Below the pieces are notes generated by a model, which saw nothing but the letters and a program-made list of their open reading frames with translations, was not told the origin of the DNA and searched no databases. The position numbers were made by a program, and so were the translations under genes. From NCBI GenBank assembly GCA_965221775.1, contig CBDCSU010000006.1:736001-800000 (forward strand): a DNA stretch of 64,000 bases, written 5' to 3'. The stretch comes from Candidatus Latescibacterota bacterium (lineage in GTDB: Bacteria > Latescibacterota > UBA2968 > UBA8231). Shown here one piece after another: positions 11,488 through 49,200 of this stretch (position 1 is the stretch's first letter; the number at the start of each line of letters is the position of its first letter).

Positions 11488-11516
11488 TTGCTTTTTCATA
11501 TCGCATGTTCTAAATT
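11488..11516 (+). promoter_or_regulatory. Putative sigma-70 promoter of the CBASS operon
   Basis: TTGCTT (11488-11493), 17-nt spacer, TAAATT (11511-11516). Confidence 0.5.
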
Positions 11517-16179: not shown

Positions 16180-16331
16180 ACTCAGGGCTGTGGAACTGTG
16201 TCATACTATCAGGCGAGAGTCGTGATACGCCAGACTCTCTCTAGTGGAGGACCAGAAACGTGTTGCTTGGGCAGGCCGGGTGGATCACTTGGAGGCCGCG
16301 AGATCACTGCCCCCTTGACTGGTCACTCCCC

Positions 16332-16982: not shown

Positions 16983-17002
16983 GACTTTCCTTCCTCTCTT
17001 CG

Positions 17003-33393: not shown

Positions 33394-33582
33394 GGGAGGG
33401 GCTGGAGGCCGGGATTTCTCGCCAGGGCGCCGACGGCAGAGTCGGTATTCGAGAGCTGTCAGCCCCGCCCCGATGTTCTCCAGCGGGCCCAGCAGATGCG
33501 GATCGCACCCGACATCATCGGCGGCGGCCTGTCGTAGGGCACTTCAATCCGGATCTCTTTCACGCCGCCTTGTTCGGCCGCC

Positions 33583-33643
33583 TTGCAAGTTTCACTATAT
33601 TACCTATATTCACCGAGTGCTGAAATCTGATGTTACAGTGAAA
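33583..33643 (+). promoter_or_regulatory. Putative promoter and operator of the AbiE-like operon
   Basis: TTGCAA, 16-nt spacer, TATATT (33583-33610), 6 nt before GTG 33617; inverted TTTCACT (33590) / AGTGAAA (33637). Confidence 0.55.
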
Positions 33644-34726
33644 TCAGCGGCCCACCGCGCCGTCGACGCGGTTCGCGAGCTGCTCCGCAACGTGCCGAGC
33701 GTGCAGGTCGAGTCCGCCAAGTATGAAGGAGACATCGGCCGCGACTACGGCGTGGACGGACTAGTCGCATTTGCCCACCGCGGCGGCAACTTCGCGCTCG
33801 TCGTCGAGGCGAAGTCCAACGGAGCCCCCCGCTTCGTCCGCTCCGGGGTCTATCAACTCGAGAGCTGCGTGGCTCGATTGCGCCGATCCGGTGAGGTAAA
33901 TGGCGGCAGGCGCCTCATTCCAATGATCGTCAGCCCCTACCTGTCTCCAGAATCCCGAGCCATCTGCCTGGACCACGACACCGCGTATCTCGATCTGGTC
34001 GGGAACGCGAGGCTCGCGTTCGACACCGTCTACATAGAGCGTGCCGTCGCGGAGAGGCCCGTCGCGGAAACCCGTGCGCTACGCTCGATCTTCACTCCGA
34101 AGGCGGCAGCGATCCTGCGAGTTCTGTTGCGCGAACCGGGACGCGCGTGGCGCGTCGCAGATCTGGCGGTGCAGGCGCAGGCGAGCTACGGCCATGTGAG
34201 TAATGTCCGCAAGGCTCTGCTGGCCCGCGAATGGATCGAGGTCGGGGATGACGGCGCTGTCCTCGTTCAACCGGACGCCCTACTGAAGACATGGCGCGCG
34301 TGCTATCGGCGCCCTGCCGGCGAGTCCATCACCGGATATACTCATCTCCATGGAAGGCAGCTCGACGAGCGGCTCCGGGGCAGGCTCAACCCGCATCCCG
34401 AGCGTCCGCGTGCCATCTACGCGCTGCACTCAGCCGCGCAGTGGCTTGCGCCTTTCGGCCGGGTCGGCACCCACGCTTTCTACGCCGACGAACCGGGCGC
34501 CGAAGCTCTGAGAGAGGCGTTGAAGCTGACGCACGCGGCCAGGGGCACGAACGTCGTGCTGCACATCCCAACGGATGAGAGCCTGTTCTACGACGCGAGC
34601 GAACCCGGACCGAACGTGTTCTGCACCAGTACCATCGTGACTTATCTCGATCTCTGGAACGGCAGCGACCGTGACCGCGAGGCGGCCGAACATCTCGCGG
34701 GCGAGTTCCTCCCATGGCTGAAGTAG
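33617..34726 (+). CDS. AbiEi-like (type IV TA) antitoxin/transcriptional regulator
   Basis: VEAKSNGAPR, SPYLSP, YLDLVGN, central wHTH (DLA...SYGHVSNVRKAL), YLDL...RDREAAEHL. Confidence 0.75.
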   Translation: MLKSDVTVKSAAHRAVDAVRELLRNVPSVQVESAKYEGDIGRDYGVDGLVAFAHRGGNFALVVEAKSNGAPRFVRSGVYQLESCVARLRRSGEVNGGRRLIPMIVSPYLSPESRAICLDHDTAYLDLVGNARLAFDTVYIERAVAERPVAETRALRSIFTPKAAAILRVLLREPGRAWRVADLAVQAQASYGHVSNVRKALLAREWIEVGDDGAVLVQPDALLKTWRACYRRPAGESITGYTHLHGRQLDERLRGRLNPHPERPRAIYALHSAAQWLAPFGRVGTHAFYADEPGAEALREALKLTHAARGTNVVLHIPTDESLFYDASEPGPNVFCTSTIVTYLDLWNGSDRDREAAEHLAGEFLPWLK

Positions 34727-35571
34727 ACCCGCAATACGCCTCTGATTACAACGATCGCACCACGGTCGCCGTCAAGTCGGTGCTGGTCGAAATCGGGCAG
34801 ATCCTCGGCAGCTACCGGGGAAGATTCGCCGTGATCGGTGGGGCCGTCCCCTGGCTGCTGCTGAACGAGTCCGACATGCAGCACATTGGAACTCTGGACG
34901 TGGATCTCAGTCTGGATGCGGAAGCCTTGGGTGACGGCGAGTACGCCCAGCTTGTCGAGTCCCTCTTGAGTCAGGGTTACCACCAGTCCGAGAGGCGGCG
35001 CCGCTTTCAACTGGTGCGCACCGTGCCCGCCCGCGACGGCGGAGACGACATCGACATCATCGTCGACTTCCTGATGCCGCGCGACGCCACGATCGCGAAG
35101 AACACTCCTCCGCTCGTGGCCGACTTCGCGGTTCAGCGCGCCGACGGCGCGGATCTCGCCTTGAGGTTCTATCAGCTAGTCGCCATCGACGGCGACATGC
35201 CCGATGGCGGGGGCAACCGCGTCCAGATCGCCGTCGCGTCCATTCCCGCGCTGCTGGCCATGAAGGGCTACGCCATCGCGAGCCGCTTCAAACCGAAGGA
35301 CGCCTACGACATCTACTACAGCATCCGCAACTTCCCGGGCGGCATCGAGGCGCTCGTCGCGGCGACCGAGCCACTCCTCGAATACGAGACAGCGAGGACC
35401 GGCTATCTCCATGTCTCGGACAAATTCCGCCACTCGGACGATTTCGGTCCGACCAGGGTGCGGCACTTCGTCGACCGGCCCGAGATGCTCGAAGAGCGCA
35501 CCGCCGATCAATGGCAGCAGGACGCGTTCGGGCAGGTCGACGCTTGGCTCTCGGCGCTGGGCCTGAGGTGA
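34714..35571 (+). CDS. AbiEii-like nucleotidyltransferase
   Basis: VIGGAVP...GTLDVDL, IVDFL, LLAMKGYA...R..PKDAYDIYY. Confidence 0.78.
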   Translation: MAEVDPQYASDYNDRTTVAVKSVLVEIGQILGSYRGRFAVIGGAVPWLLLNESDMQHIGTLDVDLSLDAEALGDGEYAQLVESLLSQGYHQSERRRRFQLVRTVPARDGGDDIDIIVDFLMPRDATIAKNTPPLVADFAVQRADGADLALRFYQLVAIDGDMPDGGGNRVQIAVASIPALLAMKGYAIASRFKPKDAYDIYYSIRNFPGGIEALVAATEPLLEYETARTGYLHVSDKFRHSDDFGPTRVRHFVDRPEMLEERTADQWQQDAFGQVDAWLSALGLR

Positions 35572-35574
35572 TCC

Positions 35575-36474
35575 GTGGCCGCAGCGTCAAATGTCAGGAT
35601 CCGCTCGATGGACATCCCGACCATCGACAGGGTGTTCGGCATGGAAGACGGCTATGTGCTCAACTTCACCAACCAGACCTTCGCCGAGTTCTTTCACGAC
35701 GAGCTCGGCGTCAACATCTACGATGACCGTTGGGGGGCTCAAGGCAATAGCAAGGCGAACCGCCTTCGCTGCTACCTGCGAACAGCGGGCCGCCAGGCAG
35801 CACTCAAGGCCCTCAAGGCGCTATGGGAGTACCGCGAAGCGAGCAGCGTAACTGCCGACTATCCAGAACTCGAAGACAAGGTGCGCGCGGCCTACGTGCG
35901 AATCGTCCAGCGCCTCGGGGGCACGGAGGCGAAACCGGCGCCGACCGCCGCAGCTCAGAGAGAACAACGAGTCGATGTGGCCGTAACCTCTGCTCTCGCC
36001 GACCGCTTGGTCGAAGTCTCCACCTTGAACCCACAAGCTCGCGGCTATGCGTTCGAGGAGTTCCTGAAGGCCGTATTCGATGCCTACGGTATGGCCGCGC
36101 GCGCCTCCTTCCGTCTCAGGGGCGAGCAGATCGACGGCAGTTTCGTGCTCGCCGAACAGACCTACTTGCTCGAAGCCAGATGGAGGAACGCCAAGGTCGA
36201 TGTGGAAACCCTTCGTGCCTTCAATGGCAAGGTCGAGGAAAAGGCGAGCTGGTCGCGAGGCCTGATCATCAGCCAAAGCGGCTTCACGGAAGACGGACTG
36301 CATGCATTCGGCCGCGGCAAGCGGGTCATATGCATGGATGGACTCGACCTGCACGAAGTTCTCTCCGGCCGGCTCCACCTCGCTGATGTCATTACTCTGA
36401 AGGCTAGGCGCGCAGCAGAAACCGGCATGGCGCATGTCCCGGTGCGCGATCTCAATGTACCCGCCCTGAAATGA
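35575..36474 (+). CDS. Mrr-like restriction endonuclease with AbiJ-type N-terminal domain
   Basis: GYVLNFTNQTFAEFF...SKANRLR N-domain; RGYAFE...EQIDG...LLEARW...SQSGFT nuclease domain. Confidence 0.78.
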   Translation: MAAASNVRIRSMDIPTIDRVFGMEDGYVLNFTNQTFAEFFHDELGVNIYDDRWGAQGNSKANRLRCYLRTAGRQAALKALKALWEYREASSVTADYPELEDKVRAAYVRIVQRLGGTEAKPAPTAAAQREQRVDVAVTSALADRLVEVSTLNPQARGYAFEEFLKAVFDAYGMAARASFRLRGEQIDGSFVLAEQTYLLEARWRNAKVDVETLRAFNGKVEEKASWSRGLIISQSGFTEDGLHAFGRGKRVICMDGLDLHEVLSGRLHLADVITLKARRAAETGMAHVPVRDLNVPALK

Positions 36475-36537
36475 GTTTCGTGGTAGCGCTGATCGGGCTG
36501 ACGACGGGGGCAACTCTGACCGGGTTCCGACCGCGAC

Positions 36538-36660
36538 CGACGAGATCGAGCGGCATCTGGACCCGTGGAGGCAGCAACGGGTTCTCGCCGATCTCGCGAG
36601 GCCTTCCCGAATACCAGTTTCATCGCATCCACCCACAGCACCGCAGGTGCTGACGACCGC
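36538..36660 (+). pseudogene. Frameshifted fragment of an ABC-ATPase Walker B/H-loop region
   Basis: Reads DEIERHLDPWRQQRVLADLAR/FPNT/FIASTHS/QVLTT across frameshifts; similar to 36838-36963. Confidence 0.6.
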
Positions 36661-37285
36661 GGATACGGACGGTGAGACTGATGTCCACCAAACGGGGGCA
36701 ACTCCAGAGAAGCTCTCTCTTGACCAGTTGGGCGGCGGCCATCTCATTGCGCTGGCGCTGGCGGCCGATCTGGCTCGACGGGATGGCGCAGGGAACCCGC
36801 ACCTGGATGATCCCCGCCATTCCGAGGCGATCGTCCTGATCGACGAGGTGGAACTCCACCTGCATCCGCGGTGGCAGCAGCGAATCCTGGGCGATCTGGT
36901 CCGCACCTTTCCCAACACCCAGTTCATCGTATCAACTCACAGCCCGCAGGTGCTGACCACGGTCGAACCTCACCGGATCGTGGAACTGTCTCACGACGGC
37001 GACCGTATCGTCGCCGGGACTCCCGCCGGGCCGACATTTGGAGCCGAGGCCGGGGACGTTCTCTCCGTGGTGATGGGCGTAGACGAACGGCCGCCGGAGA
37101 ACGCCTTCACAAGAGCCCTGGATCAGTATCGTCGCCTGCTCAGGGAGGAGCGGTCGGAGTCCGAAGAAGCCCTGGCCCTGCGGGCGAGCCTGGAAGAGAT
37201 GTCCCCCTACGATCCAGCCCTCGATCGTGCCGACCTTGAAATCCGTCGACGCAAGCTGTTCAGGCAGCGCGCCGAGTCCCGGTGA
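36647..37285 (+). pseudogene. 5'-truncated AAA_21 ATPase (PtuA/retron-effector-like), C-terminal half
   Basis: LDQLGGG, IVLIDEVELHLHPRWQQRI, FPNTQFIVSTHSPQV; no Walker A present. Confidence 0.75.
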
Positions 37286-37425
37286 AGGAGACTCGCGAAG
37301 ATATCCTGGCAGAAGATCCCCAGGAGTGGATCTGAGGCACTCAGGACCTCCACCGCGTGGTGCCGCCCGGGTCTCATGCCGCCCGGCTTGCAGTCGGGCG
37401 GTCCCCCCCCTTGACAATCCCCGGC

Positions 37426-37479
37426 CTTGCCAACAGATTCGTTGCCAACGGTCTTGTTGCCAACGGATGCGTTGGAAAG
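37426..37479. repeat. Array of GTTGCCAAC-like palindromes with exact 15-bp period (putative operator)
   Basis: CTTGCCAAC 37426, GTTGCCAAC 37441, GTTGCCAAC 37456, GTTGGAAAG 37471; TTGACA at 37411. Confidence 0.8.
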
Positions 37480-37490
37480 GAGAGTTGGTG

Positions 37491-38750
37491 GTGCTCAAGA
37501 AAGCAGGGGCCAACTGGGTCGAGGGGGATCGATTCTTCGGCCGGGAGGTAGAACTCCAGGCCCTTTCCGAGCGGGTCGGGGACGGCACCCACACCCTGCT
37601 GACCGCGCAGCGACGGATGGGCAAGACGAGCCTGGTCCGGGAGCTGCTGCGCCGTCTGAAGCAGGAGGGCCGGTTCGAGACGGTCTTCGTCGACTTGGAG
37701 GACGCCGGCACCCCGGCGGACGCCGTCGCAGAGATCGGGGCCCGGTCGAGACCTGTGCAGGGCGTCTGGCGGCAACTCAAGTCCTGGTTGGTCAACAACT
37801 TATCCGAGGTAGGGATCGGCGCCCGGCTGGAGGAAATGCCCGCCCATGAGGTGTGGGTGAAGCTCCGGGCGGGGATCGACGCCGGGAACTGGCGCCAGAA
37901 GGGGGACGAGGTCTTCTCGGCCCTCGCCCAGAACGACCGCCCTGTCGTGCTCGCCATCGACGAGCTGCCGATCCTCGTCAACCGGCTGCTCAAGGGGACT
38001 GACCACCGCATTACTCCCGAGCGGCAGAGGGCGGTTGACGAGTTCATGGCCTGGCTCCGCAAGAACGGCCAGGCCCATCGGAACCGGGTCATCCTGATCC
38101 TCGCCGGCAGCGTCAGCCTGGAACCGATCCTGGCGCAGGCGGAGCTGAGCGCTCACGCCAACATCTACTCCCCTCTCGATCTGAAGCCCTGGGACGATGA
38201 GACGGCCGCCAACTGTCTGGCGGCGCTGGCGCAGACCTACGGCCTCGACCTGCCCCTCGATGTCTGCCGGGAGATGTGCCGCCGGCTGCGGTGCCAGATT
38301 CCCAACCACGTGCAGCAGTTCTTCGACAACCTCCGCGAGCACCTGCGCCGCGCCGGCCGGCGCGAGGCCACGATGGAAGACGTAGGGCGCGTGTACAACC
38401 AGATGCTCGGCGCCCGGGGGCAGATGGATCTGGAGCATTACGAGGGCCGGCTGAAGATGGTACTGGGGAGGACGGGCTATCGGACCGCGCTAGAGATTCT
38501 GACAGAGTCCGCCATCGGTGACGGCTTGCTGAGCGACGATACGATCAGCCGCTATCGCGAGTATCTCCAGGGTGAGTCCCGGGACGAGGCCGAGGCGGGT
38601 CCGGTCCCGTTGGAGGACGTGCTCCGTGTGCTCGAACACGACGGGTACCTGGCGCGGCATGGGGACGGCTACCGGTTCGTTTCCGGCCTGCTCGAAGACT
38701 GGTGGCGCGCCCGGCACAGCCGGCACTTCGTCCCCATCGAACAGCGATGA
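37491..38750 (+). CDS. STAND-like P-loop ATPase (ATPase_2/AAA_16 type) with C-terminal winged helix
   Basis: FFGREVE, Walker A AQRRMGKTS, Walker B LAIDELP, LAGS, LEHDGYL...LLEDWW; AGGAGA RBS. Confidence 0.82.
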   Translation: MLKKAGANWVEGDRFFGREVELQALSERVGDGTHTLLTAQRRMGKTSLVRELLRRLKQEGRFETVFVDLEDAGTPADAVAEIGARSRPVQGVWRQLKSWLVNNLSEVGIGARLEEMPAHEVWVKLRAGIDAGNWRQKGDEVFSALAQNDRPVVLAIDELPILVNRLLKGTDHRITPERQRAVDEFMAWLRKNGQAHRNRVILILAGSVSLEPILAQAELSAHANIYSPLDLKPWDDETAANCLAALAQTYGLDLPLDVCREMCRRLRCQIPNHVQQFFDNLREHLRRAGRREATMEDVGRVYNQMLGARGQMDLEHYEGRLKMVLGRTGYRTALEILTESAIGDGLLSDDTISRYREYLQGESRDEAEAGPVPLEDVLRVLEHDGYLARHGDGYRFVSGLLEDWWRARHSRHFVPIEQR

Positions 38751-41545
38751 CCATCCCTGTCAGGAAGTACAACCCGGGGTTCCTCACCGACGAGGAACTG
38801 ACGGCCTCGTTCTGCGTTCGGAAGGCCGAGTTCGACTCCATGACCGAGATCCTCCGCGAATGCATCGGCGCCTCGAATCCGCACCAGATCGTGATCGGCC
38901 CGCGCGGAAGCGGCAAGACCAGCCTGCTCCTGCGAGTCGCGGCCGAGGTTCGCCGGGACCCGGAGCTATCTGCCCGCTTCCAACCCGTCGTCTTTGCCGA
39001 GGAGAGCTACGAAGTCGCCAGCACCGGGGAGTTCTGGCTGGAAGCCCTCGCCCGTCTGGCGGACCAAGCGCCGGCCCGGGAGGACGCTCCGGATCTGCAC
39101 CGCACCCTGGAAGACCTGCGCACCATCCAGGACGACCAAACCCTCGGCGACCGCTGCCTCGCCGCGCTTCTCGACTTCTCCGACCGCGAGGACAAGCGGC
39201 TCGTGCTGATGGTCGAGAACCTGAACTCCATGTTCCGCGACATGTCGGACCGCGACGCCGGCTGGCGGCTGCGCAAGATCCTCCAGACCGAGCCGCGCAT
39301 CATCCTGCTCGCCAGCGCCACCAGCCGCTTTGACGAGATCGACCACCCGGACCACGCCCTCTACGACTTGCTCCGTGTCCGCACGCTGGAACCGCTCGAC
39401 ACCAAGGAGTGCCAGGTGCTGTGGGAGACAGTCTCCGGCGCTCCCCCACCGCGCCAGACGATTCGGCCTCTCGAAATCCTCACCGGCGGCAACCCGCGCC
39501 TCGTGGCCATCGTAGCCAGCTTCGGAGCAGAGCTTTCCTTCCGCGCGTTGATGGACGACCTCCTCGACCTCGTGGACGAGCATACGGAGTACTTCAAGCG
39601 CCACATTGAGGCTCTCCCCCCCCAAGAGCGGCGGGTCTACCTGGCGCTGGCGGACCTGTGGAAGCCGGCCACCACGAGGGAGATCACCGAGCGCTCGCGG
39701 ATCGATACAAGCAAGTGCAGCGCCCAGCTCACCCGCCTCATCGAGCGGGGCGTAGTCCAGGTGACCGGCGGCAGCCTGCGCCGCAAGCAGTACTACCTGA
39801 CCGAGCGGCTGTACAACATCTACTACCTGCTGCGCCGCAATGGCGGTCCCGACTCTCTGATCCAGGCCCTCATCCGGTTCATGGAGTCGTTCTACTCCCG
39901 GTCCGCCCTGAGAGACATCGGCGAGAGAATCGCCCAGGAGGGGCGAGGCCTAGACGGGGAGCGGCGATCGCTGCACCGGACGGCGCTTGAAGTGCTGGTT
40001 CAGCTACCGGGTCTGGCCGGGCATCGAGAGGAGTTGCTTGCGCTCCTTTCCGAGGACGAACACGAAGAGCTGGCGGCTGCGAAGCCGCTGTTGCACAGAG
40101 CGGTCGAGCTGCAGAAACAAGACCGGCTGGTGGAGTCGCTGGCCACCTGGGACGAGGTGGTGCGGCGGTTAGGGGACGGCCGGTCACCAGACGTCTGCCA
40201 ACTGGTCGCCATAGCCCACTACTGCAGAGGGGAGGCTCTCGGAGAGCTGGGCCGATGGGAGGAAGCACTTGCGGGACATGAGGAAGCGCTGGCCGCCTAT
40301 GGGGAGGTGGAACGGCGATGGGGCGGGGATACGGAGGTGGATGTCGAGATGGTCACCGACGCTCTTCTCAGTAAGGGGGTCGCTCTCGCCCAGCTCGACA
40401 GGACGGAGGAATCGCTTGCCGTCTTTGGGGAGGTGGTGCGGCGATTCGGCGGGTGTCCTTTGCCAGAGGTCCTCGAACAGGTCGCCGCAGCCCTCTTCTG
40501 CATGGGTGTTGCCCTCGCCATCCTGAACCGACCCGAGGAGGCACTGGCCGCGTATGAGCTGGTGGAGCGGCGACTCGGAGGGAGCGACACGGAGGAACAT
40601 CTGGCGTTGCTCGCCAGGACCATCCTCAACAAGGGTGCTGCCCTCTACGAACTGGGCCGGACCCACGAATCGCTGGCTGTCTACGAGGAGGTCGTGCGCC
40701 GATTCGAGGAGAGCGAATCACCGGATAGTCTCCAGATGGTTGCCAATGCCCTTGTCAACAAGGGCGCCGCGCTTGGCGAGCTGGAGCGGCCGGAGGAAGA
40801 ACTGGCCGCCTTTGAGGAGGTGATACAGCGATTCGGTGAGAGCGGGATACCCGCCCTTGCCGAACCGTTGGCAGTGGCCTTCACCTACAAGGGGATGACA
40901 CTGGGACAACAGAACAGGACAGAGGAAGCCCTGGCTGCTCTTGAGGAAGTTGAACGGCGTTTTGGGGCAGATGACTCCCCCCCACTGCGTGCACGGGTCG
41001 AGGAGGCGCTCCTGGAGAAAGCCGAACTCCAGCTGGAATGCCGCCGATATGAGGCAGCCGCATCTACTGCTGGCCGGGTACTCGACGAGAGCAGCACGAA
41101 ATCACTGGAGAACCGCTGGCGCGGTCACGTGATACGGGCCAAGGCGAGCCTTCGCAACGGTGATCCGACCTGCTGCCGGAGGGAGATCAAGGAAGTTCTC
41201 CGGGTCCTTCCGCAGTTCAAGACCCTGCCTGAAGAGTGCTCCTACGAACTGATGCACTTCAGCATCAGGCTCGGCCTGGAGCCCATGGTCGAACTAGTCC
41301 AGGGCTCTCCATCAGCGAACCTTCTGCTGCCGTTCACCACGGCGCTGGAACAGGAACTCGGCCGCACGCCCCGGGTGGCGCAGGAGATCGCTGAGGTTGC
41401 CTGGGACATCCGCCAGAAACTGGCGACGCTGAGAAATCTGCTAGCACAATTCGGGAGTGAGGCTACTTCTGGTATGCACGCAGATGGCATCGACAGGCAT
41501 TCCACAGATTTGGGGGTGAAGGAGAATCATGGAACACAGGACTGA
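38747..41545 (+). CDS. STAND-like ATPase + wHTH + TPR-repeat protein (NLR-like)
   Basis: GPRGSGKTS, LMVENL, LTGGNPRL (GxP), SAQLTRLIERG wHTH, then about 8 repeats of A(L)xxKGxAL..L.R.EE.LA.(Y/F)EEV.RRFG; ATGA overlap. Confidence 0.85.
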   Translation: MTIPVRKYNPGFLTDEELTASFCVRKAEFDSMTEILRECIGASNPHQIVIGPRGSGKTSLLLRVAAEVRRDPELSARFQPVVFAEESYEVASTGEFWLEALARLADQAPAREDAPDLHRTLEDLRTIQDDQTLGDRCLAALLDFSDREDKRLVLMVENLNSMFRDMSDRDAGWRLRKILQTEPRIILLASATSRFDEIDHPDHALYDLLRVRTLEPLDTKECQVLWETVSGAPPPRQTIRPLEILTGGNPRLVAIVASFGAELSFRALMDDLLDLVDEHTEYFKRHIEALPPQERRVYLALADLWKPATTREITERSRIDTSKCSAQLTRLIERGVVQVTGGSLRRKQYYLTERLYNIYYLLRRNGGPDSLIQALIRFMESFYSRSALRDIGERIAQEGRGLDGERRSLHRTALEVLVQLPGLAGHREELLALLSEDEHEELAAAKPLLHRAVELQKQDRLVESLATWDEVVRRLGDGRSPDVCQLVAIAHYCRGEALGELGRWEEALAGHEEALAAYGEVERRWGGDTEVDVEMVTDALLSKGVALAQLDRTEESLAVFGEVVRRFGGCPLPEVLEQVAAALFCMGVALAILNRPEEALAAYELVERRLGGSDTEEHLALLARTILNKGAALYELGRTHESLAVYEEVVRRFEESESPDSLQMVANALVNKGAALGELERPEEELAAFEEVIQRFGESGIPALAEPLAVAFTYKGMTLGQQNRTEEALAALEEVERRFGADDSPPLRARVEEALLEKAELQLECRRYEAAASTAGRVLDESSTKSLENRWRGHVIRAKASLRNGDPTCCRREIKEVLRVLPQFKTLPEECSYELMHFSIRLGLEPMVELVQGSPSANLLLPFTTALEQELGRTPRVAQEIAEVAWDIRQKLATLRNLLAQFGSEATSGMHADGIDRHSTDLGVKENHGTQD

Positions 41546-42611
41546 GGGGGAGACACTACTCGCCCATCTTGCCTGGAAGCTGTCCTCGCGTCACGAGGAC
41601 ATCGCGGTGGAAGCCCTTGGCTTCATCCTGAAGTCGGATTCCACACTCCGTGCGATAGAAGGGGTCTTGGAGGATGGAGGCGCGGATGTCGGGAAGATTG
41701 CCAGGATCCAGACCCAGGTCAGCGGCGATGGGGAGACGCGGCCGGACCTCGTCGGCTTTGATCAGCATGATGTGGAGTGCGTGTTGATCGAGGCGAAGTT
41801 CTGGGCCGGCCTCACGGCCAATCAGCCCAATGCGTATCTCGACAGATTGGCCCCTGGCAAAGCACTCCTGTTCGTCGCGCCTGAATCGAGGCTGGAGACG
41901 CTCTGGCCGGAGTTGCGCCGCCGGGCCGACTCTGACCGCCTGCTCTCCATCCTTGACAGGACTTCCCTCAAGAGCGCCGCGACCGATGACGGGAAGCACC
42001 TGATGATGATCAGTTGGGCGGATCTGCTCGACCGCCTCCAAGGTGCCGCCGACTCCTCCTCAAGGAACGAGATACGGCAGTTGCGGGGTCTTGTACATCG
42101 GGTGGATGACGAGAGTGGGTATCCGCCGCTCCGGCCGGAGGAGCTGGCCCCGGAGATCCCACGCCGGCTGCTCAGCCTGGAGCGCCTCATCGGCGACGCC
42201 ACGGCCCGGGCCGTGGAACAAGGATACGCGGATATCAAGGGTTTGAATGTCACCCCGTATCCGGGCGGTTACGGGCGCCCGCGCGGGTACGGACGGTATC
42301 TCTCGTTGAAGGGCGCCATCGCCTGGTTTGGCATCGGCCTCAACTGGTGGGTCCGGGGAGGATATTCGGATACCCCCCTCTGGCTTTCCTTCGGGCTATC
42401 GAAAGATGAAGGGTACAGAGCGCGCTGGCCGGACACGAGCAGGGCCCTCGAGCCGCTCAAGCGAAGGGACCCGCCCGAGTGTCTGGAAGAGAATCAGGCG
42501 CTCCTTGTCCCCATCGCCCTGCCGACTGGAGTCGAATACGACGCTGTGCTCGATGCCGTGGTTGAACGTCTCCGGGAGATCGCCGATCTCATCGACAAAC
42601 ACCGGACCTGA
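41529..42611 (+). CDS. PD-(D/E)XK nuclease superfamily protein
   Basis: HED...RPDL...LIEAKF...LTANQP.AY; overlaps the end of the TPR gene; AAGGAGA RBS. Confidence 0.75.
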   Translation: MEHRTEGETLLAHLAWKLSSRHEDIAVEALGFILKSDSTLRAIEGVLEDGGADVGKIARIQTQVSGDGETRPDLVGFDQHDVECVLIEAKFWAGLTANQPNAYLDRLAPGKALLFVAPESRLETLWPELRRRADSDRLLSILDRTSLKSAATDDGKHLMMISWADLLDRLQGAADSSSRNEIRQLRGLVHRVDDESGYPPLRPEELAPEIPRRLLSLERLIGDATARAVEQGYADIKGLNVTPYPGGYGRPRGYGRYLSLKGAIAWFGIGLNWWVRGGYSDTPLWLSFGLSKDEGYRARWPDTSRALEPLKRRDPPECLEENQALLVPIALPTGVEYDAVLDAVVERLREIADLIDKHRT

Positions 42612-42621
42612 CCAGTCACCC

Positions 42622-43764
42622 TCACTCCCACCCCGCCTCCGCCGCCAGCACCTTCACCGCCTCCACCAGCACCTCCAGCTCCGCCTCGCTGATGTAGAAC
42701 GCCACCGAGATCCGGACGCCGCTCGGATCGGTCAGGTAGGTGGCCCGCTGCACGATCTGCCAGCGGTCCTTCAGCGCCGCCGACACCTCCCCGCCGTCCA
42801 TGCCCTCGATGGCGAAGGTCACGGTGCCGGTCTGCGAGTCCCGCCGCCGTGAGCTGTGCACCAGGACGCCGGGCACGGTGTCGAGGCTCGCCTTCAGGGC
42901 CTCCGCCTTTCGCGCCGACTCGCGCTGGATCGCCTCGACGCCGCCGATGCTCTCGATGAGGTCGATCGTCGCCGCCACGCCGGCGTAGAGGGCGTAGGAG
43001 GGGGTGCTGGTGACGTACTGGGCGGCGCCTCCCTCGGGATCGTGGGGTCGGAGGAGGGGCTTCAGGCTCTGGCGCGCCTCGTCGCTGACGTAGAGGAAAC
43101 CCGTCCCGATGGGGCCGAGCATCCACTTGTAGCAGTTCGAGGCGTAGTAGTCGCAGCCCATCTCCCGCAGGTTCACGGGGATCTGGGCCACGGCGTGGCA
43201 GCCGTCCCACAGGGTGGGGACGCCCCGCTCCCGCGCCAGCCGGCAGATCTCCGGGGCCGGCACCACCAGGCCGGTGTCGGTGGTGACGTGGCTCATGCAG
43301 ATCAGGCGCGTGCGCGGGGTCAGGGCCCGCTCGGTGTGCTCGAGGGTGACCGCGGGGTCGTGGTCGATCTCGACGGCCTTCAGGACGACGCCGTAGCGCT
43401 CCTGCAGGCCGAGGACGGCCCGGTGCGGCACGGGGTGCTCCTCGCTGGTGATCAGCACCTCCTCCCCCGGCTCCCAGGACAGGCCGCCGATGACCGCCGC
43501 GATGCCGTCGGCGGTGCTCACGGTGAGGGTGAGGTCTCCCTCCTCCGCCCCGAGGAAGGCGGCCAGCCGGGTCCGTGCCGCGTCGGCTGCCTGGCTGGTC
43601 AGGGTGTACCACTCGATGGGCGGCACATGCTCCTCGTAGAGCTGGTCGAAGCCGGCCTGCACGGCGGCGTGCACCTCCCGGGACGGCAGCCCGACGCCGC
43701 CGGTGTTGAGCTGGATCCCCCGGCTCAGGCCGGGGTAGTGGGCGCGGATCTCCTCGAGGTTCAC
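42622..43764 (-). CDS. Aminotransferase class V PLP enzyme (cysteine desulfurase/isopenicillin epimerase-like)
   Basis: LNTGG, EEHP, SHV...G, DGCHA, CYKWMLGP.GTG, RIS..FY. Confidence 0.9.
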   Translation of the reverse strand: MNLEEIRAHYPGLSRGIQLNTGGVGLPSREVHAAVQAGFDQLYEEHVPPIEWYTLTSQAADAARTRLAAFLGAEEGDLTLTVSTADGIAAVIGGLSWEPGEEVLITSEEHPVPHRAVLGLQERYGVVLKAVEIDHDPAVTLEHTERALTPRTRLICMSHVTTDTGLVVPAPEICRLARERGVPTLWDGCHAVAQIPVNLREMGCDYYASNCYKWMLGPIGTGFLYVSDEARQSLKPLLRPHDPEGGAAQYVTSTPSYALYAGVAATIDLIESIGGVEAIQRESARKAEALKASLDTVPGVLVHSSRRRDSQTGTVTFAIEGMDGGEVSAALKDRWQIVQRATYLTDPSGVRISVAFYISEAELEVLVEAVKVLAAEAGWE

Positions 43765-43882: not shown

Positions 43883-45341
43883 CTACCGGGCCGCCGGTGA
43901 GCCCGTGAGGCCCTCCACGGCTTCGGTCATCGCCTCCAGGACCGCCTCCAGGCAGCCCGGTGCCAGGCACGAGGGCTCCTCCTGGTAGAGGCCGAGGCCG
44001 TAGCGGTCCCGCGGCAGCAGGTAGGCCAGCTGCGGGGTCCCGGCCACGGGCGAGATCAGCACCGGCCGGCCGGGGAAGCGCCGCCGCAGCTCGGTCGCCA
44101 GCATCGCTGTAGGGCTCGGCGGCGCAGGTGATCCAGAGGGCGTCCCCCATCTCGTGGACGGTGAACCGATACGGACAGCGGTCGCCCGGGGGCAGCTCGG
44201 CGAGGCGCCGCAGCCACCGCCGGCAGCGCTCGGCGCGGGCGCCGGCGTCGCGCGCGGCCAGGGCGTCGCCGGCTTCGTCGGCTCGTGCCTGGTCGCGGGT
44301 GTGGCGGTCGAGGTCAGCCCTCAGCTGGTCCACGTCCGGCAAGTCCTTGAAGGGCAGGTCGACCTGAAAGCGGCCGACCGACCAGCGGCGCACCGCCTCG
44401 GCGCGGGGACCCGCCACGGGCGTCCACCCCCAGGTGCCGATGGTGGCGCCGGAGAGGACCGGCCCCTGGTAGGCGAAGTCGTGGCCGGGCGGACCGAGGC
44501 CGGCGAGGGCCGACAGGGCGGCGAAGCCCAGCTGCCGGCCGTTGCGGTCGGCCACCTCGGTGTCGCCGGTGAAGCCGTCGCGGGGCCCCAGTTCGCCGCA
44601 CAGGCCCTGGAAGTAGACGCAGGGGGTGCCGGTGTGGTCGCTGACCACCTGGCGGGCAGCGCCGACGAAGTCGGGGCTCAGGAGGCTGTTGTCCCAGGAT
44701 AGAGTCGTGGGGTGGCAGGCGTAGTGCACGAGGTGCAGGCGGGGGGTGCCGTCGAGGGCGGTGACCCGCGCCGCCACCACAAGGTCCTCGGCGGCCTCGC
44801 CGGGGTTGAAGCCGGTGACCCGGAGGTCCCGCTCCTCGTCATGGTAGTCGCGGTTGGCGGCCATGCCGCAGCGGCCCTCGGCGTAGGTGACCACGGCCTC
44901 GTCCAGGTCCTCCAGGGCGTCCCGGGCGAGGGAGCCGAGGGTCTCCCCGAGGCCGGCGAGGTAGGGCTCGATGAGGTCGCCCCCGGGCAGGGGGATGCGG
45001 TCGGGCGGGTAGAAGCCGGCGGCGTGGGTGTGGGAGAAGGTGACGACGACGCGGTCCCGGTCGACGCCGGCGGCGCGCACCAGGCCGGCCACCACCGCGT
45101 CGGTCTGGCCGTCGTCGAGCAGCACGTGGTCGAGCTGCACGCGCACCAGGCGCTCCCGCGGCCGGTCCACCGGCTCCAGGACGAGCACGTCCGCCATCAG
45201 CGGCCGGTGCACGCCGGTGGCGCGGTCGTGGCGGGCGGCGCCCCACATGCGGTGGTAGATGCCCACGGGCGGCGTGATGTCGCCGTGGGCGTGGCCCAGG
45301 CGCAGCACCGACGTGGGCGTGGGAACGAGCGTCGTCGACAT
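43883..45341 (-). pseudogene. Neutral/alkaline ceramidase-like hydrolase with a 1-nt frameshift near 44105 (pseudogene or sequencing error)
   Basis: DITPP, SHTHAA, YACHPT, QGLCGE; coding-biased frame switches at ...EPYS/MLATELRRRFP...GLYQE, ending at 43883. Confidence 0.7.
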
Positions 45342-45408
45342 GGAATCCCTCCGGCTCCGGGCGGCTCAAGCTGTGGCGGCGGTTCGATCGTGGCAATAGG
45401 ATCTGAGA

Positions 45409-46248
45409 ATGCCCGCGCCCGTGGAGCACCTGATCTTCCTCATCCACCCCTGCTGCTACGAGCCGGTCGAGGCCGAGCGCATAGAGCGGGAAGGGCTGCG
45501 GCTCTTTCTCGAGCGGGAGGAGGAGGTGAAGGCGCGCTGGCTGGCCGACCTCTCCGCCGGGGGCGAGGCCACCCTCTTCGCGCAGCTCGGGGGGCCGGAG
45601 TACCTGCGCGACGCGGCGGCCGAGTCCCTCGGGGAGACGGGAGCCCTGCTGCTGCGGAGCCCCTTCCCCGAGAGCGGGCATCTGGACGAGTACTACCGCC
45701 GACTGCGGGACGAGCTGCTGGAGCACCTGGACCGCCACGATCTCACCCTCGACCGGGAGACCGTGGCCTCCGAGTTGTGGGGCGAGTCCTTCGAGGGCTG
45801 CGTCCCCGGGTACGGCGGCGCCTTCGCCCATCACCTGGGACTGCAGCGGGCGCCGCGGATGCGCTTCGAGATGACCGTGTACGACTCCCGCTTTTTGCAC
45901 CGGGCGCGCCGCCGGGAGAGCCTGGCCCTGCCCGGAAGCGATGTCGAGGCCTGGCTCTTCGAGTGCCACGACGGCACCGGCGCCGCCACCTTCCAGCCGC
46001 GCCTCACGCCCCAGTGGCTGGACCGCCGGCGCCTGTGGCTGAGGCTGAACGACCGCCGCCACCAGCTCTGCGACAAGCAGGGCCACGCCGTGTGGCCGGT
46101 CTCCCCCTGGGAGAAGGGGAAGCCCGAGGGCGAGCACAATGTCACGGTGGCGATGAAGGAGTGGATCAACCGCTGGGTGCGGGGCGTGGGCACCGGCATC
46201 GACGAGTTCCGCGCCGTCGTCGAGGCGGCGCGCCTGACGGCCCCGTGA
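45409..46248 (+). CDS. Hypothetical protein
   Basis: 279-aa ORF with host codon bias, GTGA-coupled to the Lhr gene; LIHP and WGESFEGCV motifs. Confidence 0.65.
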   Translation: MPAPVEHLIFLIHPCCYEPVEAERIEREGLRLFLEREEEVKARWLADLSAGGEATLFAQLGGPEYLRDAAAESLGETGALLLRSPFPESGHLDEYYRRLRDELLEHLDRHDLTLDRETVASELWGESFEGCVPGYGGAFAHHLGLQRAPRMRFEMTVYDSRFLHRARRRESLALPGSDVEAWLFECHDGTGAATFQPRLTPQWLDRRRLWLRLNDRRHQLCDKQGHAVWPVSPWEKGKPEGEHNVTVAMKEWINRWVRGVGTGIDEFRAVVEAARLTAP

Positions 46249-49200
46249 GCACCGCCTCGCCGCCCGCGGCGCAGGACGCCCTCGAGCTGTTCCACCCCCT
46301 CGTGCGCCGGTGGTTCACCGAGCGCGTCGGCGAGCCCACCGACGTGCAGGCCGCCGCCTGGCCGCGCATCGCCGGCGGCGAGCACCTGCTGGTCACCGCG
46401 CCCACCGGCTCCGGCAAGACCCTCACCGCCTTCCTGTGGGCCCTCGACCGCCTGGTCCGCGGCGACTGGCCGGAGGGGGCCACCAGCGTCCTCTACGTCT
46501 CGCCCCTGAAGGCGCTCAACAACGACATCCAGCGCAACCTCCTCGGGCCGCTGGAGGAGCTGCGGCAGCGGTTCCAGGCCGCCGGCGAGCCCTTCCCCCC
46601 CATCCGCGCCCTCACGCGCTCCGGGGACACGCCCCAGGAGGACCGGCGCCGCATGCTGCGCCAGCCGCCGGAGATCCTCATCACCACCCCGGAGTCCCTC
46701 AACCTGCTGCTCTCCTCCCAGGGGGGGCGCGGCCTGCTCACCGGCCTGCGGTGCGTCATCCTCGACGAGATCCACGGCGTCGTCGGCAGCAAGCGCGGCG
46801 TCCACCTGATCACCGCCGTGGACCGCCTCGTGCGCCTCTCGGGGGAGTTCCAGCGGATCTCCCTGTCGGCGACGGTGCGGCCCCTCGACCGGGTGGCGGC
46901 CTTCGTCGGCGGCTTCCGGCGCCTGCCGGGGCGGGGCGGCGAGCGCTACGAGCCGCGTCCCGTGGCCGTCCTGCGCTCCTCGGCTTCCAAGCGCTACGAC
47001 GTCTCCGTGCGCTTCCCGGAGGCCGCCGACGCCGAGGGCGAGAATCAGGACGACTCGATCTGGCCGGCCATGGCCGAGGCCTTCGAGGAGATCATCGCCG
47101 GCAACCGCTCGACCCTGCTCTTCGTCAACGCCCGCCGCCTGTGCGAGAAGATCACCCGCTTCCTCAACGAGGGCCGCGAGCAGCCCCTGGCCTACGCCCA
47201 TCACGGCTCCCTGTCGCGCGAGATCCGCGAGGTCGTGGAGCGCCGCCTGAAGGAGGGGGAGCTGAAGGCGATCGTGGCCACCAACTCCCTGGAGATGGGC
47301 ATCGACATCGGCGCCCTCGACGAGGTCGTCCTCGTGCAGTCGCCGCCGTCGGTCTCCTCCGCCGTGCAGCGCGCCGGCCGCGCCGGCCACCAGGTCGGCG
47401 AGGTGAGCAAGGCCACCCTCTATCCCACCCACGGCCACGACTTCCTCGAGGCGGCGGTGCTGGCGGCGCAGATCGACGCCCACGACATCGAGGAGATCGA
47501 CCCCGTCACCGGCGCCCTCGACGTCCTCGCCCAGGTGCTGATCTCCATGGCCGGCACCGAGAGCTGGGACCTGGACGAGCTCTACGACGAGGTGCGCGCC
47601 AGCTTCCCCTACCGCCACCTCGCCCGCCGCCAGTTCGACCTCGTCGTCGACATGCTCGCCGGCCGCTACGCCGGCAGCCGGGTGCGCGACCTGCGGCCCC
47701 GGGTGACCGTGGACCGTCTCGACAACACGGTGGAGGCGCGCCGGGGGGCGATGAGCCAGCTCTACATGTCGGGCGGCACGATCCCCGACCGCGGCCTCTT
47801 CAACCTGCGCCTGGAGGGCTCGGGCGCGAAGCTGGGCGAGCTGGACGAGGAGTTCGTGTGGGAGTCGTCCGAGGGGCAGTCCTTCACCCTGGGCACCCAG
47901 AACTGGACGATCCGCAAGATCACCCACAACGACGTGCTGGTGAGCCCGGCGCCGGCCCGCACCGTGGACCTGCCCTTCTGGAAGGGGGAGGGCGCCAACC
48001 GCGACTTCCACTTCTCCAGCGCCATCGGCCGCTTCCTCGAGGACGCCGAGGCCGGCCTCGAGGGCCCCGCCTTCCGGCAACGGCTCACCGACCGCCACCA
48101 CATGGACGAGACCGCCGCCGGCAGCCTCCTCGACTTCCTCGGGCGCCAGCGCGAGGCCACCGGCGCCCCCCTGCCCCACCGCCATCACCTGCTGGTGGAG
48201 CACGTCGCCTCGGCCCCGGGGGGATACATGGGCAGCCAGGTGGTGCTGCACACGTTCTGGGGCGGGCGCGTCAACCAGCCCTTCGCGCTGGCCCTCGACG
48301 CCGCCTGGGAGGAGCGCTTCGGGGGCCGCATCGAGGTCTATCCCTCCAACGACTGCATCGTCCTCGTCCTGCCGGCGGAGACCGGCTCCGAGGAGATCCT
48401 CAGCCTCGTCACCTCCGGCCGCGTGGAGGAACTGCTGCGCCAGCGGCTGGAGGCCTCCGGCTACTTCGGGGCCCGCTTCCGCGAGTGCGCCCAGCGGGCC
48501 CTGCTGCTGACCCGGCGCAGCCTGACCGAGCGCATGCCCCTGTGGCTGAGCCGCCTGCGCTCGCAGCGCCTGCTCGACACGGTGATGCGCTACGAGGACT
48601 TCCCCATCCTCGTCGAGGCCTGGCGCTCCTGCCTGCAGGACGGCTTCGACCTGCCCGCCCTGCGCCTCGTCCTCTCCGAGCTGGAGTCCGGCGCCATCGA
48701 GTGGTCGGAGTGCCGCACCCGCCGCCCGAGCCCGTTCTCGCGCTCCGTCGCCTGGGGGCAGGTCAACGAGTACATGTACGCCGGCGACGCCGCCGCCGGC
48801 CGCCAGACCTCGGAGCTGCGCTCGGACCTGCTGCGCGAGGTCGTCTTCACCCCCGGCCTGCGGCCCACCCTCCCGGCCCACGTGGTGCGGCGCTTCGAGG
48901 AGAAGCGCCAGCGCCTGCACCCGGGGTACGCGCCGTCCGAGGCGCGGGAGCTGGTCGACTGGGTCGACGAGCGCCTGCTGGTCCCGTGGTCCGAGTGGGA
49001 GGCCCTGCTCGCCGCCGCGGCGCGGGACTCGGCCGAGGCCGGGGGGGAGGAGGGATGGGTGGAGGGGGAGGAGGAAGCCTGGAGGGGGCGAATCGTGCGG
49101 GTCGAGGCCGAGGTCCTGGCCGAGCCGGTGGTGGTTGCGCGTCAGGCCCTGGGGCGCCTCGCGGTATTCCCCTGGTGGGGGGAGGCGCGGGTGAGCGGGT

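Follow-up and report, generated by a model that had tools for sequence, protein, structure and literature searches.

Three co-directional, overlapping open reading frames (P1, P2, and P3) span 5.1 kb of the + strand, at positions 37491-42611 of the window, i.e., the whole 64,000-nucleotide stretch of Candidatus Latescibacterota DNA that was analysed. This arrangement, which an earlier note on the same DNA had already described, was borne out by the open reading frames, their translations, and the junction sequences; the ATG of P2 overlaps the TGA of P1 as ATGA, and the start of P3 overlaps the stop of P2 (41545) by 17 nt. The genes, with their motifs and domains, are as follows.

37491-38750, + strand: P1, a 419-aa ATPase_2/AAA_16-like P-loop ATPase with a C-terminal winged-helix-like region; start GTG at 37491 (or GTG at 37488) behind AAAGGAG, stop at 38750
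37605-37631, + strand: P1 Walker A, AQRRMGKTS (aa 39-47)
37944-37970, + strand: P1 Walker B, VVLAIDELP (aa 152-160)
38747-41545, + strand: P2, an ATPase/TPR protein, ATG at 38747
38747-39838, + strand: P2 N-terminal module of nucleotide-binding domain (NBD), helical domain (HD), and winged helix (WHD), delimited by Pfam AAA_16 (E 2.6e-9), the TrmB winged helix-turn-helix, the AF2 model, Foldseek, and invariant columns
38897-38923, + strand: P2 Walker A, GPRGSGKTS (aa 51-59)
39200-39223, + strand: P2 Walker B with Val-Glu-Asn, LVLMVENL (aa 152-159)
39479-39502, + strand: P2 GGxP motif, LTGGNPRL, invariant in the aligned relatives
40118-41117, + strand: TPR-like array of P2 (7-8 repeats, period 43 aa), the region in which the family varies
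41303-41545, + strand: P2 C-terminal helical tail, conserved (SP..L..P ... VA.EI.EVA.D), found in TPR-less relatives too
41529-42611, + strand: P3, a 360-aa stand-alone nuclease candidate, ATG at 41529 preceded by AAGGAG
P3 aa 6-177: N-domain, PD-(D/E)XK, with E28, D73, and E88-x-K90
P3 aa 206-359: C-domain, alpha/beta, for which a clear counterpart was not found

The GC content is 0.63-0.68 across this region, against about 0.72 in the flanks. A promoter and terminator scan of 36300-43000, uninformative in such a high-GC genome, returned no promoter-like site and a single terminator-like site (minus strand), counts below those of shuffled sequences.

P1 matches Pfam AAA_16 (E 8.5e-8) as well as AAA_22, and reaches 27.0 bits against ATPase_2 (PF01637), under the 33.2 cut-off of that family; despite this sub-threshold score, kinship with ATPase_2 is supported by the match of the P1 family profile to PDB 2qen (E 8.7e-9) and also to 2fna. 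The Walker A that had been called atypical is present, but it is just mildly so, since the first residue among the 16 aligned relatives is A in nine and G in seven. The Walker B had been read as normal (IDE), and rightly, with D157 and E158 invariant in the same 16 relatives together with R41, R42, G44, K45, T46, and S47. As judged from these alignments, the catalytic site of P1 is intact and canonical throughout the family, which is highly conserved (more than 100 clusters at 65-93% identity). When longer proteins containing a fused P1 were sought, with a near-blank outcome that is weak evidence by the tool's own statement, one was returned, P0245 (1061 aa), made of a quarter of P1 and a P2-like body; it was rejected as a true fusion, its locus being probably decayed or miscalled. 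Moreover, profile-profile comparison of P1 with P2 gave an alignment confined to the Walker A region, and the two proteins are thus not recent paralogues.

In P2, the normal Walker A and the degenerate VENL Walker B of the earlier description were both recovered. Measured against the canonical STAND P-loop (Walker B hhhhD[D/E]), the Walker A is canonical, whereas in the Walker B a Val replaces the Asp; V-E-N is invariant in 16/16 aligned rows, V and E are invariant in 22/22 full-length rows, and the Walker B strand of the AF2 model terminates at V156. Two complementary ATPases had been proposed, and this holds in part: the P2 Walker B is fixed in a non-canonical form, while the P1 site is canonical. 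The GxP motif and the winged helix had likewise been seen correctly, the latter matching Pfam TrmB over aa 293-350 (E 6.9e-7). The N-terminal module (pLDDT 80.7) has the layout NBD-HD-WHD, and Foldseek related it to Orc1/Cdc6, CED-4, Apaf-1, 2qen/2fna, NRC NLRs, and Avs3 (E 8e-10 to 2e-6), with Orc1/Cdc6 and 2qen/2fna equal to or better than CED-4, Apaf-1, NRC NLRs, and Avs3. A C-terminal repeat-type sensor region, as expected of STAND proteins, is present in the window protein. However, neither P1 nor P2 passes the curated STAND Pfam thresholds, P2 reaching 21.7 bits against nSTAND1 (cut-off 27.1) and 16.4 bits against PF01637 (cut-off 33.2). Of the label STAND ATPases given to the pair, the NBD-HD-WHD-TPR layout of P2 stands, and ORC/Cdc6 and ATPase_2 proteins match its fold as well as or better than the NLR-type proteins do. 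Ahead of its Walker A, P2 has only about 50 residues, and Pfam returned no effector family for the protein. A match to NCBIfam DS41_1_antiphage (E 0.029) covers the P-loop region only and was set aside as a plain P-loop match.

Several TPR Pfam families match P2, the top one being TPR_12 (E 3.4e-16). The repeat spacings (92, 43, 43, and 86) give a period of 43 aa and 7-8 units from aa 459 to roughly aa 790, close to the eight TPRs of roughly 45 aa counted before. Variability of this region had been suggested as a check, and the array does diverge faster than the N-terminal module: identity to orthologues is 73-85% for the module, and 48-66% for the TPR region in four of the five close loci, with 84% in the fifth (L006). 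The family ranges from 502 to 1211 aa (40 complete open reading frames), and TPR families were found in 29/35 C-terminal regions. The tail columns are nearly invariant in these 35 regions and in the 22 full-length rows, and the minimal TPR-less proteins of L171 and L202 retain the tail. Contigs from three of four sponge-metagenome runs match P2 up to about 39831-39838, at the end of the winged helix, and then continue into unlike sequence. The depth of sponge-metagenome contigs was low over 39834-40738 in the four runs; as a lack of cover, this was given no weight.

The pairing of the two ATPases proved tight. P2 lies immediately downstream of P1 in 20/20 loci of the phylum and in all 70 metagenome loci where 700 nt or more follow P1; the metagenome P1 loci with no P2 match (6/80) each have 278 nt or less remaining. 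In all 94 loci with both genes these are on the same strand, with an extrapolated gap of -156 to 62 nt (median 12). Furthermore, the distribution of P1 is patchy, in 35/168 genomes of the phylum and, within genera, in 2/9 genomes of g1 and 8/31 of g13. A word-based search retrieved 2160 proteins of the P1-P2-module family at E <= 0.001 among 8000 candidates scored, and the family of the pair spans phyla, i.e., Latescibacterota, an Acidobacteriota MAG, a Rariloculaceae MAG, and a decayed copy in Longimicrobiales. Neither P1 nor P2 was found in 2.9 million viral contigs, PLSDB plasmids (72,556), or GenBank phages (50,697 records); for P1, there was no match at E <= 1e-20 in PLSDB, none at E <= 1e-10 in the phages, and 0 confirmed in the viral contigs. 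Mobility of the pair therefore rests solely on its patchiness. P1-P2 is a widespread two-gene ATPase/TPR operon with no curated name.

A complex was predicted for the minimal homologous pair of L171, a 45%-identical homologue of the window pair, with alignments built for this analysis. The outcome for this homologue was 'weak support', 0.32 against 0.00 for the best of three controls, in a range (0.60 or under) that holds only 7 of the 80 solved complexes and both of the mismatched pairs that passed; the mark itself was passed by 58 of these 80 complexes and by 2/110 mismatched pairs. The runs share at least 79% of contacts, and partner pLDDT is at least 72.

The earlier note had also placed the genes in a defence island, and the segment directly upstream of P1, variable in the genus of the window, does hold AbiE-like, Mrr, and Septu remnants:

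33473-34726, + strand: AbiEi-like gene (Pfam AbiEi_2 E 0.0023, below cut-off)
34714-35571, + strand: AbiEii-like nucleotidyltransferase (Pfam AbiEii E 1.8e-5)
35575-36474, + strand: Mrr_cat restriction-type nuclease (Pfam Mrr_cat E 3.7e-10)
36647-37299, + strand: decayed Septu system, with PtuA and PtuB remnants
36707-37279, + strand: C-terminal half of PtuA (PADLOC PtuA E 1.1e-57, profile positions 254-452 of 455 only)
37153-37299, + strand: first 49 codons of PtuB (tblastn, 55% identity to PtuB residues 1-49)

The AbiEi-like, AbiEii-like, and Mrr_cat genes (33473-36474) form a strain-specific insert, missing from two syntenic sister genomes. The PtuA remnant is 82% identical (tblastn) to residues 241-430 of the intact PtuA of L117, and the intact homologues of the remnants are PtuA/PtuB by PADLOC; the whole PtuA ATPase and PtuB HNH genes of an intact Septu are missing upstream of P1. 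In genus g13, one chromosomal site with constant flanking genes was found in four states:

L116 and L118: the pair
L117 and L119: the pair and Septu
L214 and L215: Septu alone
L211-L213: neither

In this genus the two genes of the pair are inserted by themselves between chromosomal genes that are conserved. Because the pair and Septu occur at the g13 hot spot singly, together, or not at all, a defence role for P1-P2 appears plausible. P2 is followed by a TmtA-like gene in L115. In 56 metagenome loci, housekeeping genes (FlhB, RNase Y, ABC transporters, topoisomerase, LpxB) make up most of the 133 genes nearest to the pair, with a defence-type minority (Type IIG R-M, phospholipase effector, HmaC, AbiEi, DrmMI, mad2/mad3); no PADLOC family exceeds three members among them, as descriptive counts.

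P3 gave no match in Pfam, PADLOC, or NCBIfam. Its reading as a PD-(D/E)XK nuclease, made in the earlier note, gained ground as a prediction from an E...PD...ExK signature (E23, E28, R71-P72-D73, E88-A89-K90) invariant in 22/22 relatives and from a core that aligns with restriction enzymes. In the AF2 model (pLDDT 83.9) the signature residues lie on H22-33, E74-77, and E83-89, placing an acidic residue on helix 1 and PD and (D/E)xK on adjacent strands. A restriction-endonuclease-like alpha/beta core was recovered at moderate scores (VIA-align Z 5.0-7.8), the rows over residues 6-190 being mostly restriction enzymes or nucleases (N.BspD6I, R.BspD6I, EcoT38I, LlaBIII, FokI, BsaWI, MspJI, McrBC, and Can2). 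Foldseek of the model against the PDB gave nothing at E <= 0.001; its top rows were MspJI, YaeQ, and EcoT38I (E 2e-3 to 2e-2).

Across its own 79 genome loci, the P3 family stands alone in 76, with P1 or P2 within 8 kb in only three; two of these are the sister genomes of the window, syntenic across both flanks, and in the third a P1 remnant has an internal deletion and P3 lies 4.8 kb past P2. No neighbour of P3 is conserved in more than 12/79 loci, tandem paralogues are common, and 0 relatives were confirmed in viral contigs. Matches of mad2 type number 8/141 among P3 neighbours, as a descriptive count, and a methyltransferase is not a regular neighbour. A cysteine desulfurase (SspA/DndA-like) gene lies downstream of P3; a phosphorothioation link was considered and dropped, because the genes beyond the desulfurase (ceramidase-like, Lhr helicase) are core genome.

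From the side of the pair, the order P1-P2-P3 was found only in the genus of the window, in three syntenic genomes that represent one event. P3 does not follow P2 in 18/20 loci of the phylum, nor in any of the 25 metagenome P1-P2 loci where 4.5 kb or more of sequence follows. In a family-level survey of 76 genomes, P3 was present in nine and P1 in 15 (G000 counted), and the two were adjacent only in genus g1; G102, G123, G129, and G142 carry both, far apart or on different contigs. The spacing also differs in the sister genomes, with a P2-P3 gap of 43-100 nt and no overlap. Contigs from four sponge-metagenome runs span the P2-P3 junction, and these are of the same lineage as the window. The strict linkage of P1 with P2 and the independence of P3 thus point to two units and not to one three-gene system, so that the nuclease proposed in the earlier note as a third component, an effector supplied in trans, co-occurs with the pair in one lineage only, an outcome that the note itself had named as a refutation. 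The 17-nt overlap, the Shine-Dalgarno sequence before P3, and the fact that none of the three genomes of the lineage has lost P3 would be compatible with a functional link particular to this lineage.

In this context, the explanation that we favour, at somewhat better than even confidence, is that two separable accessory units lie side by side in a hot spot, namely the P1-P2 operon, which we infer to be a sensing and defence pair, and the self-contained P3. P2 would be the sensor and scaffold, with nucleotide bound and poorly hydrolysed, and its TPR array would bind a ligand, for which a phage protein is the likeliest candidate; P1 would be the hydrolysing partner and assemble with P2. The output may come from the P1-P2 assembly itself, e.g., from two winged helices acting on DNA, or from an unlinked factor; as the conserved pair carries no effector domain, this output step is a guess. 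P3 would be a predicted nuclease from a separate, normally lone family with its own C-terminal domain, and is probably co-transcribed with the pair in the window merely through its landing site. A bolder extension, which we put forward tentatively, is that P1-P2 represents a novel and broadly distributed anti-phage system of two components, a hydrolysis-impaired, effector-less TPR sensor and a competent ATPase_2 partner, whose hetero-oligomer would be the effector (e.g., by ORC-like winged-helix engagement of invading DNA) or would license unlinked nucleases such as P3, and that the P3 family would then add another new defence nuclease, one that stands alone and has expanded in bacteria associated with sponges.

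Among the other readings, a non-immune regulatory or remodelling AAA+ pair, e.g., a ligand-sensing transcription or assembly factor like the MalT/LAL-type AAA_16-TPR regulators, with P3 unrelated, is one that we consider unlikely. It would account for the winged-helix domains of P1 and P2, the missing effector domain, the mostly housekeeping metagenome neighbours, the strong conservation of P1, which is unusual for an immune gene, and the absence of the family from phage and plasmid collections; yet the neighbour scans found no conserved neighbouring target genes, and this reading sits poorly with the patchiness within g1 and g13, with the insertion/deletion polymorphism at a g13 site that alternatively holds Septu, and with variation in TPR number and sequence of the kind that sensors typically show when selection shifts. 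A role in maintaining or transposing a mobile element, similar to that of ORC/Cdc6-like or TniB-like ATPases, seems highly improbable. Weak P2 profile matches (ORC-CDC6-like, E 2.9e-6; TniB, E 0.031), the rank of Orc1/Cdc6 as its top structural matches, and the patchy distribution are in its favour, but recurrent integrase, transposase, or replication genes do not accompany the pair, the plasmid, phage, and viral collections hold no match, and the g13 insert consists of the two genes alone.

The single NLR-like system of the earlier note, in which a P1-P2 hetero-oligomer senses phage proteins via the TPRs and activates P3 in trans, perhaps in this genus alone by a recruited stand-alone nuclease, is in our view quite improbable. 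The co-directional genes, the 17-nt overlap, and the AAGGAG before the P3 ATG speak for it, as do the gene order kept in three genomes of the genus, the four sponge-metagenome runs that bridge the P2-P3 junction (though of the same lineage), and a conserved pair with no effector of its own; a precedent exists in MADS, which contains split ATPase-nuclease modules (PMC13662399). What weighs against it is that the three syntenic genomes are a single independent occurrence, that P3 is missing after P2 nearly everywhere else and its own loci usually hold no pair, the two being usually far apart when in one genome, and that the sister genomes have a gap in place of the overlap.

Should P1-P2 confer protection against phages, a STAND/ORC-like sensor would be divided between two proteins, a sensing subunit that probably does not hydrolyse and a separate hydrolysing one; with no recognisable effector, how would such an assembly stop infection? 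The negative outcome for the three-gene system matters as well: overlapping genes and a credible account of the domains were insufficient here, because cross-lineage synteny divided the proposed system.

When compared against the closest known systems, the module matched none of these. The earlier note had recognised no named system and had suggested PADLOC as a check, which returned only weak mad8 matches for P1 (E 2.9e-6) and P2 (E 1.9e-4). No such architecture appears in the literature searched, including PMC13581612, PMC13092281, PMC13662399, and bioRxiv 10.1101/2023.03.30.534895, though it may be listed in the supplements to DefensePredictor and the STAND survey. MADS resembles the pair through MAD7-MAD8, mad8 being the only PADLOC match of P1 and P2. 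Its detection needs MAD6, MAD7, and MAD8 (bioRxiv 10.1101/2023.03.30.534895), whereas nothing corresponding to MAD6 or MAD7, and no methyltransferase or kinase, is part of the P1-P2 module, and neither MAD6 nor MAD7 was found among the scanned window neighbours.

With Type II/IIS enzymes, P3 shares its N-domain, which aligned with N.BspD6I (2ewf, Z 7.8), the R.BspD6I small subunit (2p14, Z 7.8), EcoT38I (7e8r, Z 6.8), and FokI (2fok, Z 5.8) over 122-134 residues at rmsd 3.8-4.3, Z below 8 being the tool's common range; it differs from them in having no sequence-family match, regular methyltransferase neighbour, or clear counterpart of the C-domain. The archaeal ATPase_2 proteins PAB2304 (2qen) and SSO1545 (2fna) have the ATPase and winged helix common to P1 and P2, and they gave the best TM-scores of the P2 N-terminal module (2qen, TMt 0.59, rmsd 7.0; 2fna, 0.58, 6.0); unlike P1 and P2, which score below the PF01637 cut-off, these are single proteins with no TPR partner.

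Septu is close in location, PtuA/PtuB occupying the hot spot of the pair in g13 and a decayed copy lying just upstream of P1 in the window; its AAA_15/AAA_21, ABC-like ATPase with an HNH partner is different, and Septu is gained and lost independently of P1-P2. With Avs (Avs3, PDB 8dgc, Foldseek rank 49), P2 shares a variable TPR-type array placed after an NBD-HD-WHD module, and the genes sit in defence-gene hot spots. P2 differs from Avs in carrying no fused effector, with Walker A starting at residue 51, in matching no PADLOC Avs model, in the family-wide change of the Walker B Asp to Val, in fitting ORC/Cdc6 and archaeal ATPase_2 structures as well or better, and in probably requiring P1, a second, separately encoded ATPase.

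Three genes on the + strand occupy the stretch which the earlier note had read as one NLR-like defence system, with the nuclease as effector in trans:

37491-38750, + strand: P1, ATPase, 419 aa (GTG at 37488 is an equally possible start), AAAGGAG site upstream
38747-41545, + strand: P2, ATPase/TPR protein, 932 aa, its ATG overlapping the P1 stop as ATGA
41529-42611, + strand: P3, PD-(D/E)XK nuclease candidate, 360 aa, AAGGAG before its ATG, 17-nt overlap with the end of P2

The window is a high-GC chromosome segment (~72%), of which the closest named relatives are Latescibacterota MAGs, and GC drops to 0.63-0.68 at 33.4-42.6 kb. A further low-GC stretch at 8000-17000 suggests another acquired island, because its GC is 0.58-0.65 against ~0.72. 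Runs of several studies that are labelled sponge metagenome (share of words 0.22-0.53), as well as one run labelled marine metagenome, contain near-identical or related contigs of 37300-42700.

P1 and P2 are an obligate operonic pair, in agreement with the coupling of two ATPase genes first proposed. P1 was present in 35 of the 168 genomes of the phylum, and P2 lay directly downstream in all 20 phylum regions fetched, as well as in 70/70 metagenome loci with at least 700 nt past P1 (survey of 80 loci, the best of 218). Moreover, both genes were on the same strand in 94/94 loci holding both, and the extrapolated gap between them had a median of 12 nt. A search for longer forms gave one protein that joins a P1 fragment to a P2-like body (P0245, 1061 aa; 25% of P1, 83% identity), probably a decayed or miscalled junction and not a true fusion.

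The nuclease could not be upheld as a conserved third component. Among the 79 genome loci fetched in a P3-based survey (best 80 of 199 confirmed stretches), P1 or P2 lay within 8 kb of P3 in only three. Two of these are the window's sister genomes (L001 and L006); since the collinearity with the window extends to either side of the module, the trio in the window and in these two is one ancestral event. In the third, L073, the P1 copy is internally deleted and 4.8 kb separate P2 from P3. From the P1 side, P3 was found only in the two sister genomes among the 20 fetched regions, and in 0/25 metagenome loci with at least 4.5 kb past P1 (again among the best 80 of 218). Across 76 genomes of the taxonomic family, P3 occurs in 9 and P1 in 15 (counting G000), and they adjoin only in the window's genus (g1); both are present, far apart, in G102, G123, G129 and G142, and also in G169 and G172 of other phyla. 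The earlier note had named a nuclease that does not accompany the ATPase pair elsewhere as evidence against its reading, and this is what we found: in our judgement, the three-gene system does not exist beyond a single lineage.

P3 is most likely a nuclease that works independently. It has no match in Pfam, PADLOC or NCBIfam, and 943 relatives were found among 8000 candidates scored. Its assignment as a PD-(D/E)XK protein holds, given the E...PD...ExK residues invariant in 22 diverse relatives (E23, E28, R71-P72-D73, E88-A89-K90) and the alignment of residues 6-177 with restriction-enzyme PD-(D/E)XK cores. Of the two domains in the AF2 model (pLDDT 83.9), the N-terminal one matched N.BspD6I and the R.BspD6I small subunit (Z 7.8), EcoT38I (6.8), LlaBIII (6.1) and FokI (5.8); weak Foldseek rows agree with such a core, and PDDEXK_4, in 12% of members of a neighbouring Atlas cluster, is a lead only. 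The second domain (residues 206-359) is of alpha/beta type, has generic matches only and may serve in substrate recognition. Tandem arrays of two or three P3 paralogues are frequent (L020, L025, L035, L076 and ~15 other P3 loci); an N-terminal extension of ~120 aa is present in some relatives (P0072, P0090), and a duplicated C-terminal domain in others (P0120, P0121). No neighbour is common to more than 12 of the 79 loci. Among 141 nearest neighbours at 75 loci (L001 and L006 excluded, two sequences dropped for size), raw counts without a control were 9 for PDC-S03 and 8 for mad2-like methyltransferases, with single matches to DrmC, IetA, LeoA/BC, Cas3, SoFic and PDC.

Regarding the pair itself, Pfam matched P1 to AAA_16 (E 8.5e-8) and AAA_22, with ATPase_2 and nSTAND1 below threshold, and a profile of 16 relatives matched the archaeal Walker-type ATPases 2qen (E 8.7e-9) and 2fna. 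Its Walker A, described beforehand as atypical, is only mildly so: the family form is [A/G]QRR[M/I/V]GKTS, in which the first residue is A in 9/16 rows and G in 7/16 and the RR-GKTS core is invariant. P1 looks like a competent ATPase, a prediction made because this core and Walker B D157-E158 are invariant in 16 rows.

For P2, Pfam matched AAA_16, a winged helix of TrmB type at aa 293-350 and a large number of TPR families; its Walker A is canonical. The degenerate Walker B was borne out, since the Val-Glu-Asn of LVLMVEN is fixed in 16/16 rows (V and E in 22/22); an AF2 model covering residues 1-468 (pLDDT 80.7) has the strand stop at V156, the site of the usual aspartate. Hence, as far as sequence tells, an intact catalytic site in P1 stands against a fixed non-canonical one in P2, and profiles of the two align only around Walker A. 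The modelled region is an NBD-HD-WHD unit, and because its Foldseek matches (E 8e-10 to 2e-6) span Orc1/Cdc6, CED-4, Apaf-1, 2qen/2fna, plant NRC NLRs and Avs3, the model places P2 within the ORC-to-STAND continuum, without assignment to a STAND clade.

Between its conserved N-terminal module and its conserved tail, P2 carries a TPR array that varies across the family. We measured 7-8 units with a 43-aa period, close to the ~8 repeats of ~45 aa first counted, followed by a tail (SP..L..P...VA.EI.EVA.D) nearly invariant family-wide. Length ranges from 502 to 1211 aa (40 complete ORFs, out of 74 loci with a P2 match), and TPR families occur in 29/35 non-duplicate C-terminal regions. Two minimal natural forms lack the array and keep both the NBD-HD-WHD module (NTPase, winged helix) and the tail:

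L171, 5789-7294: P2 of 502 aa
L202, 10231-11892: P2 of 554 aa

In five close orthologous loci that module is 73-85% identical, with 48-66% identity in the TPR part of four and 84% in the fifth, L006. Furthermore, sponge-metagenome contigs from 3/4 runs match the window to ~39831-39838, the WHD end, and then continue as unlike sequence.

The proposed defence-island setting was supported by the variable segment upstream of the module; the two flanks contain:

33394-37195 (L001 2615-3537; L006 1711-3804): SDR gene-to-P1 segment, differing in three otherwise collinear g1 genomes
36647-37299: decayed Septu directly upstream of P1, C-terminal half of PtuA and first 49 PtuB codons
42622-43764, - strand: class-V aminotransferase/cysteine desulfurase with SspA/DndA PADLOC matches, shared core flank; no other Dnd or Ssp genes seen with it
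44712-51095, + strand: long ORF for a large helicase of Lhr type (domains from residue 543), shared core flank beyond P3

The sister genomes have 0.9 and 2.1 kb in place of the window's segment directly before P1, which is strain-specific, and only the window has an AbiEi-like/AbiEii-like pair and a Mrr_cat nuclease there. L117 contains an intact homologue with 82% identity to the PtuA remnant. The pair shows presence/absence polymorphism in a hot spot common with Septu: at one site in a sister genus (g13), flanked by a conserved gene of 394 aa on one side and an alpha/beta hydrolase on the other (L116-L119, L211-L215), two genomes hold the pair, two the pair with intact Septu, two Septu alone and three neither. 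L211 has a 2.7-kb insert at this site instead. In a genome of the same family, the gene that directly follows P2 encodes a TmtA-like (Tiamat) protein of 1008 aa (L115 1316-4342, - strand; PADLOC E 4e-70). Against a defence context, 133 nearest neighbours at 56 metagenome loci (two nearest ORFs per side, 120-1100 aa; four duplicate loci dropped; without control) are mainly housekeeping, with scattered defence genes. P1 and P3 families were not found in viral contigs, nor P1 in plasmid and phage collections.

In this context, P2 would sense a ligand through its TPRs and may bind nucleotide without efficient hydrolysis, which P1 would provide inside a hetero-assembly. No effector domain is conserved in the pair. 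A complex prediction on custom alignments for the minimal pair of L171 scored 0.32, whereas none of three controls exceeded 0.00 (contact agreement at least 79%, partner pLDDT at least 72); the mark is reached by 58/80 solved complexes and 2/110 mismatches, and at scores up to 0.60 by only 7/80 solved complexes and both passing mismatches. This model weakly supports a P1-P2 complex.

Both proteins are unnamed by PADLOC 2.0.0 and NCBIfam, and no description of them was found in the literature searched. By its sequences, the pair is a putative variant related to STAND-TPR/ATPase_2 kinds rather than a named system. The nearest kind to P1 is the ATPase_2 proteins of unknown function, and to P2 the Avs/STAND-TPR sensors, from which P2 differs in having neither a fused effector nor a canonical Walker B, and in needing a second ATPase gene.
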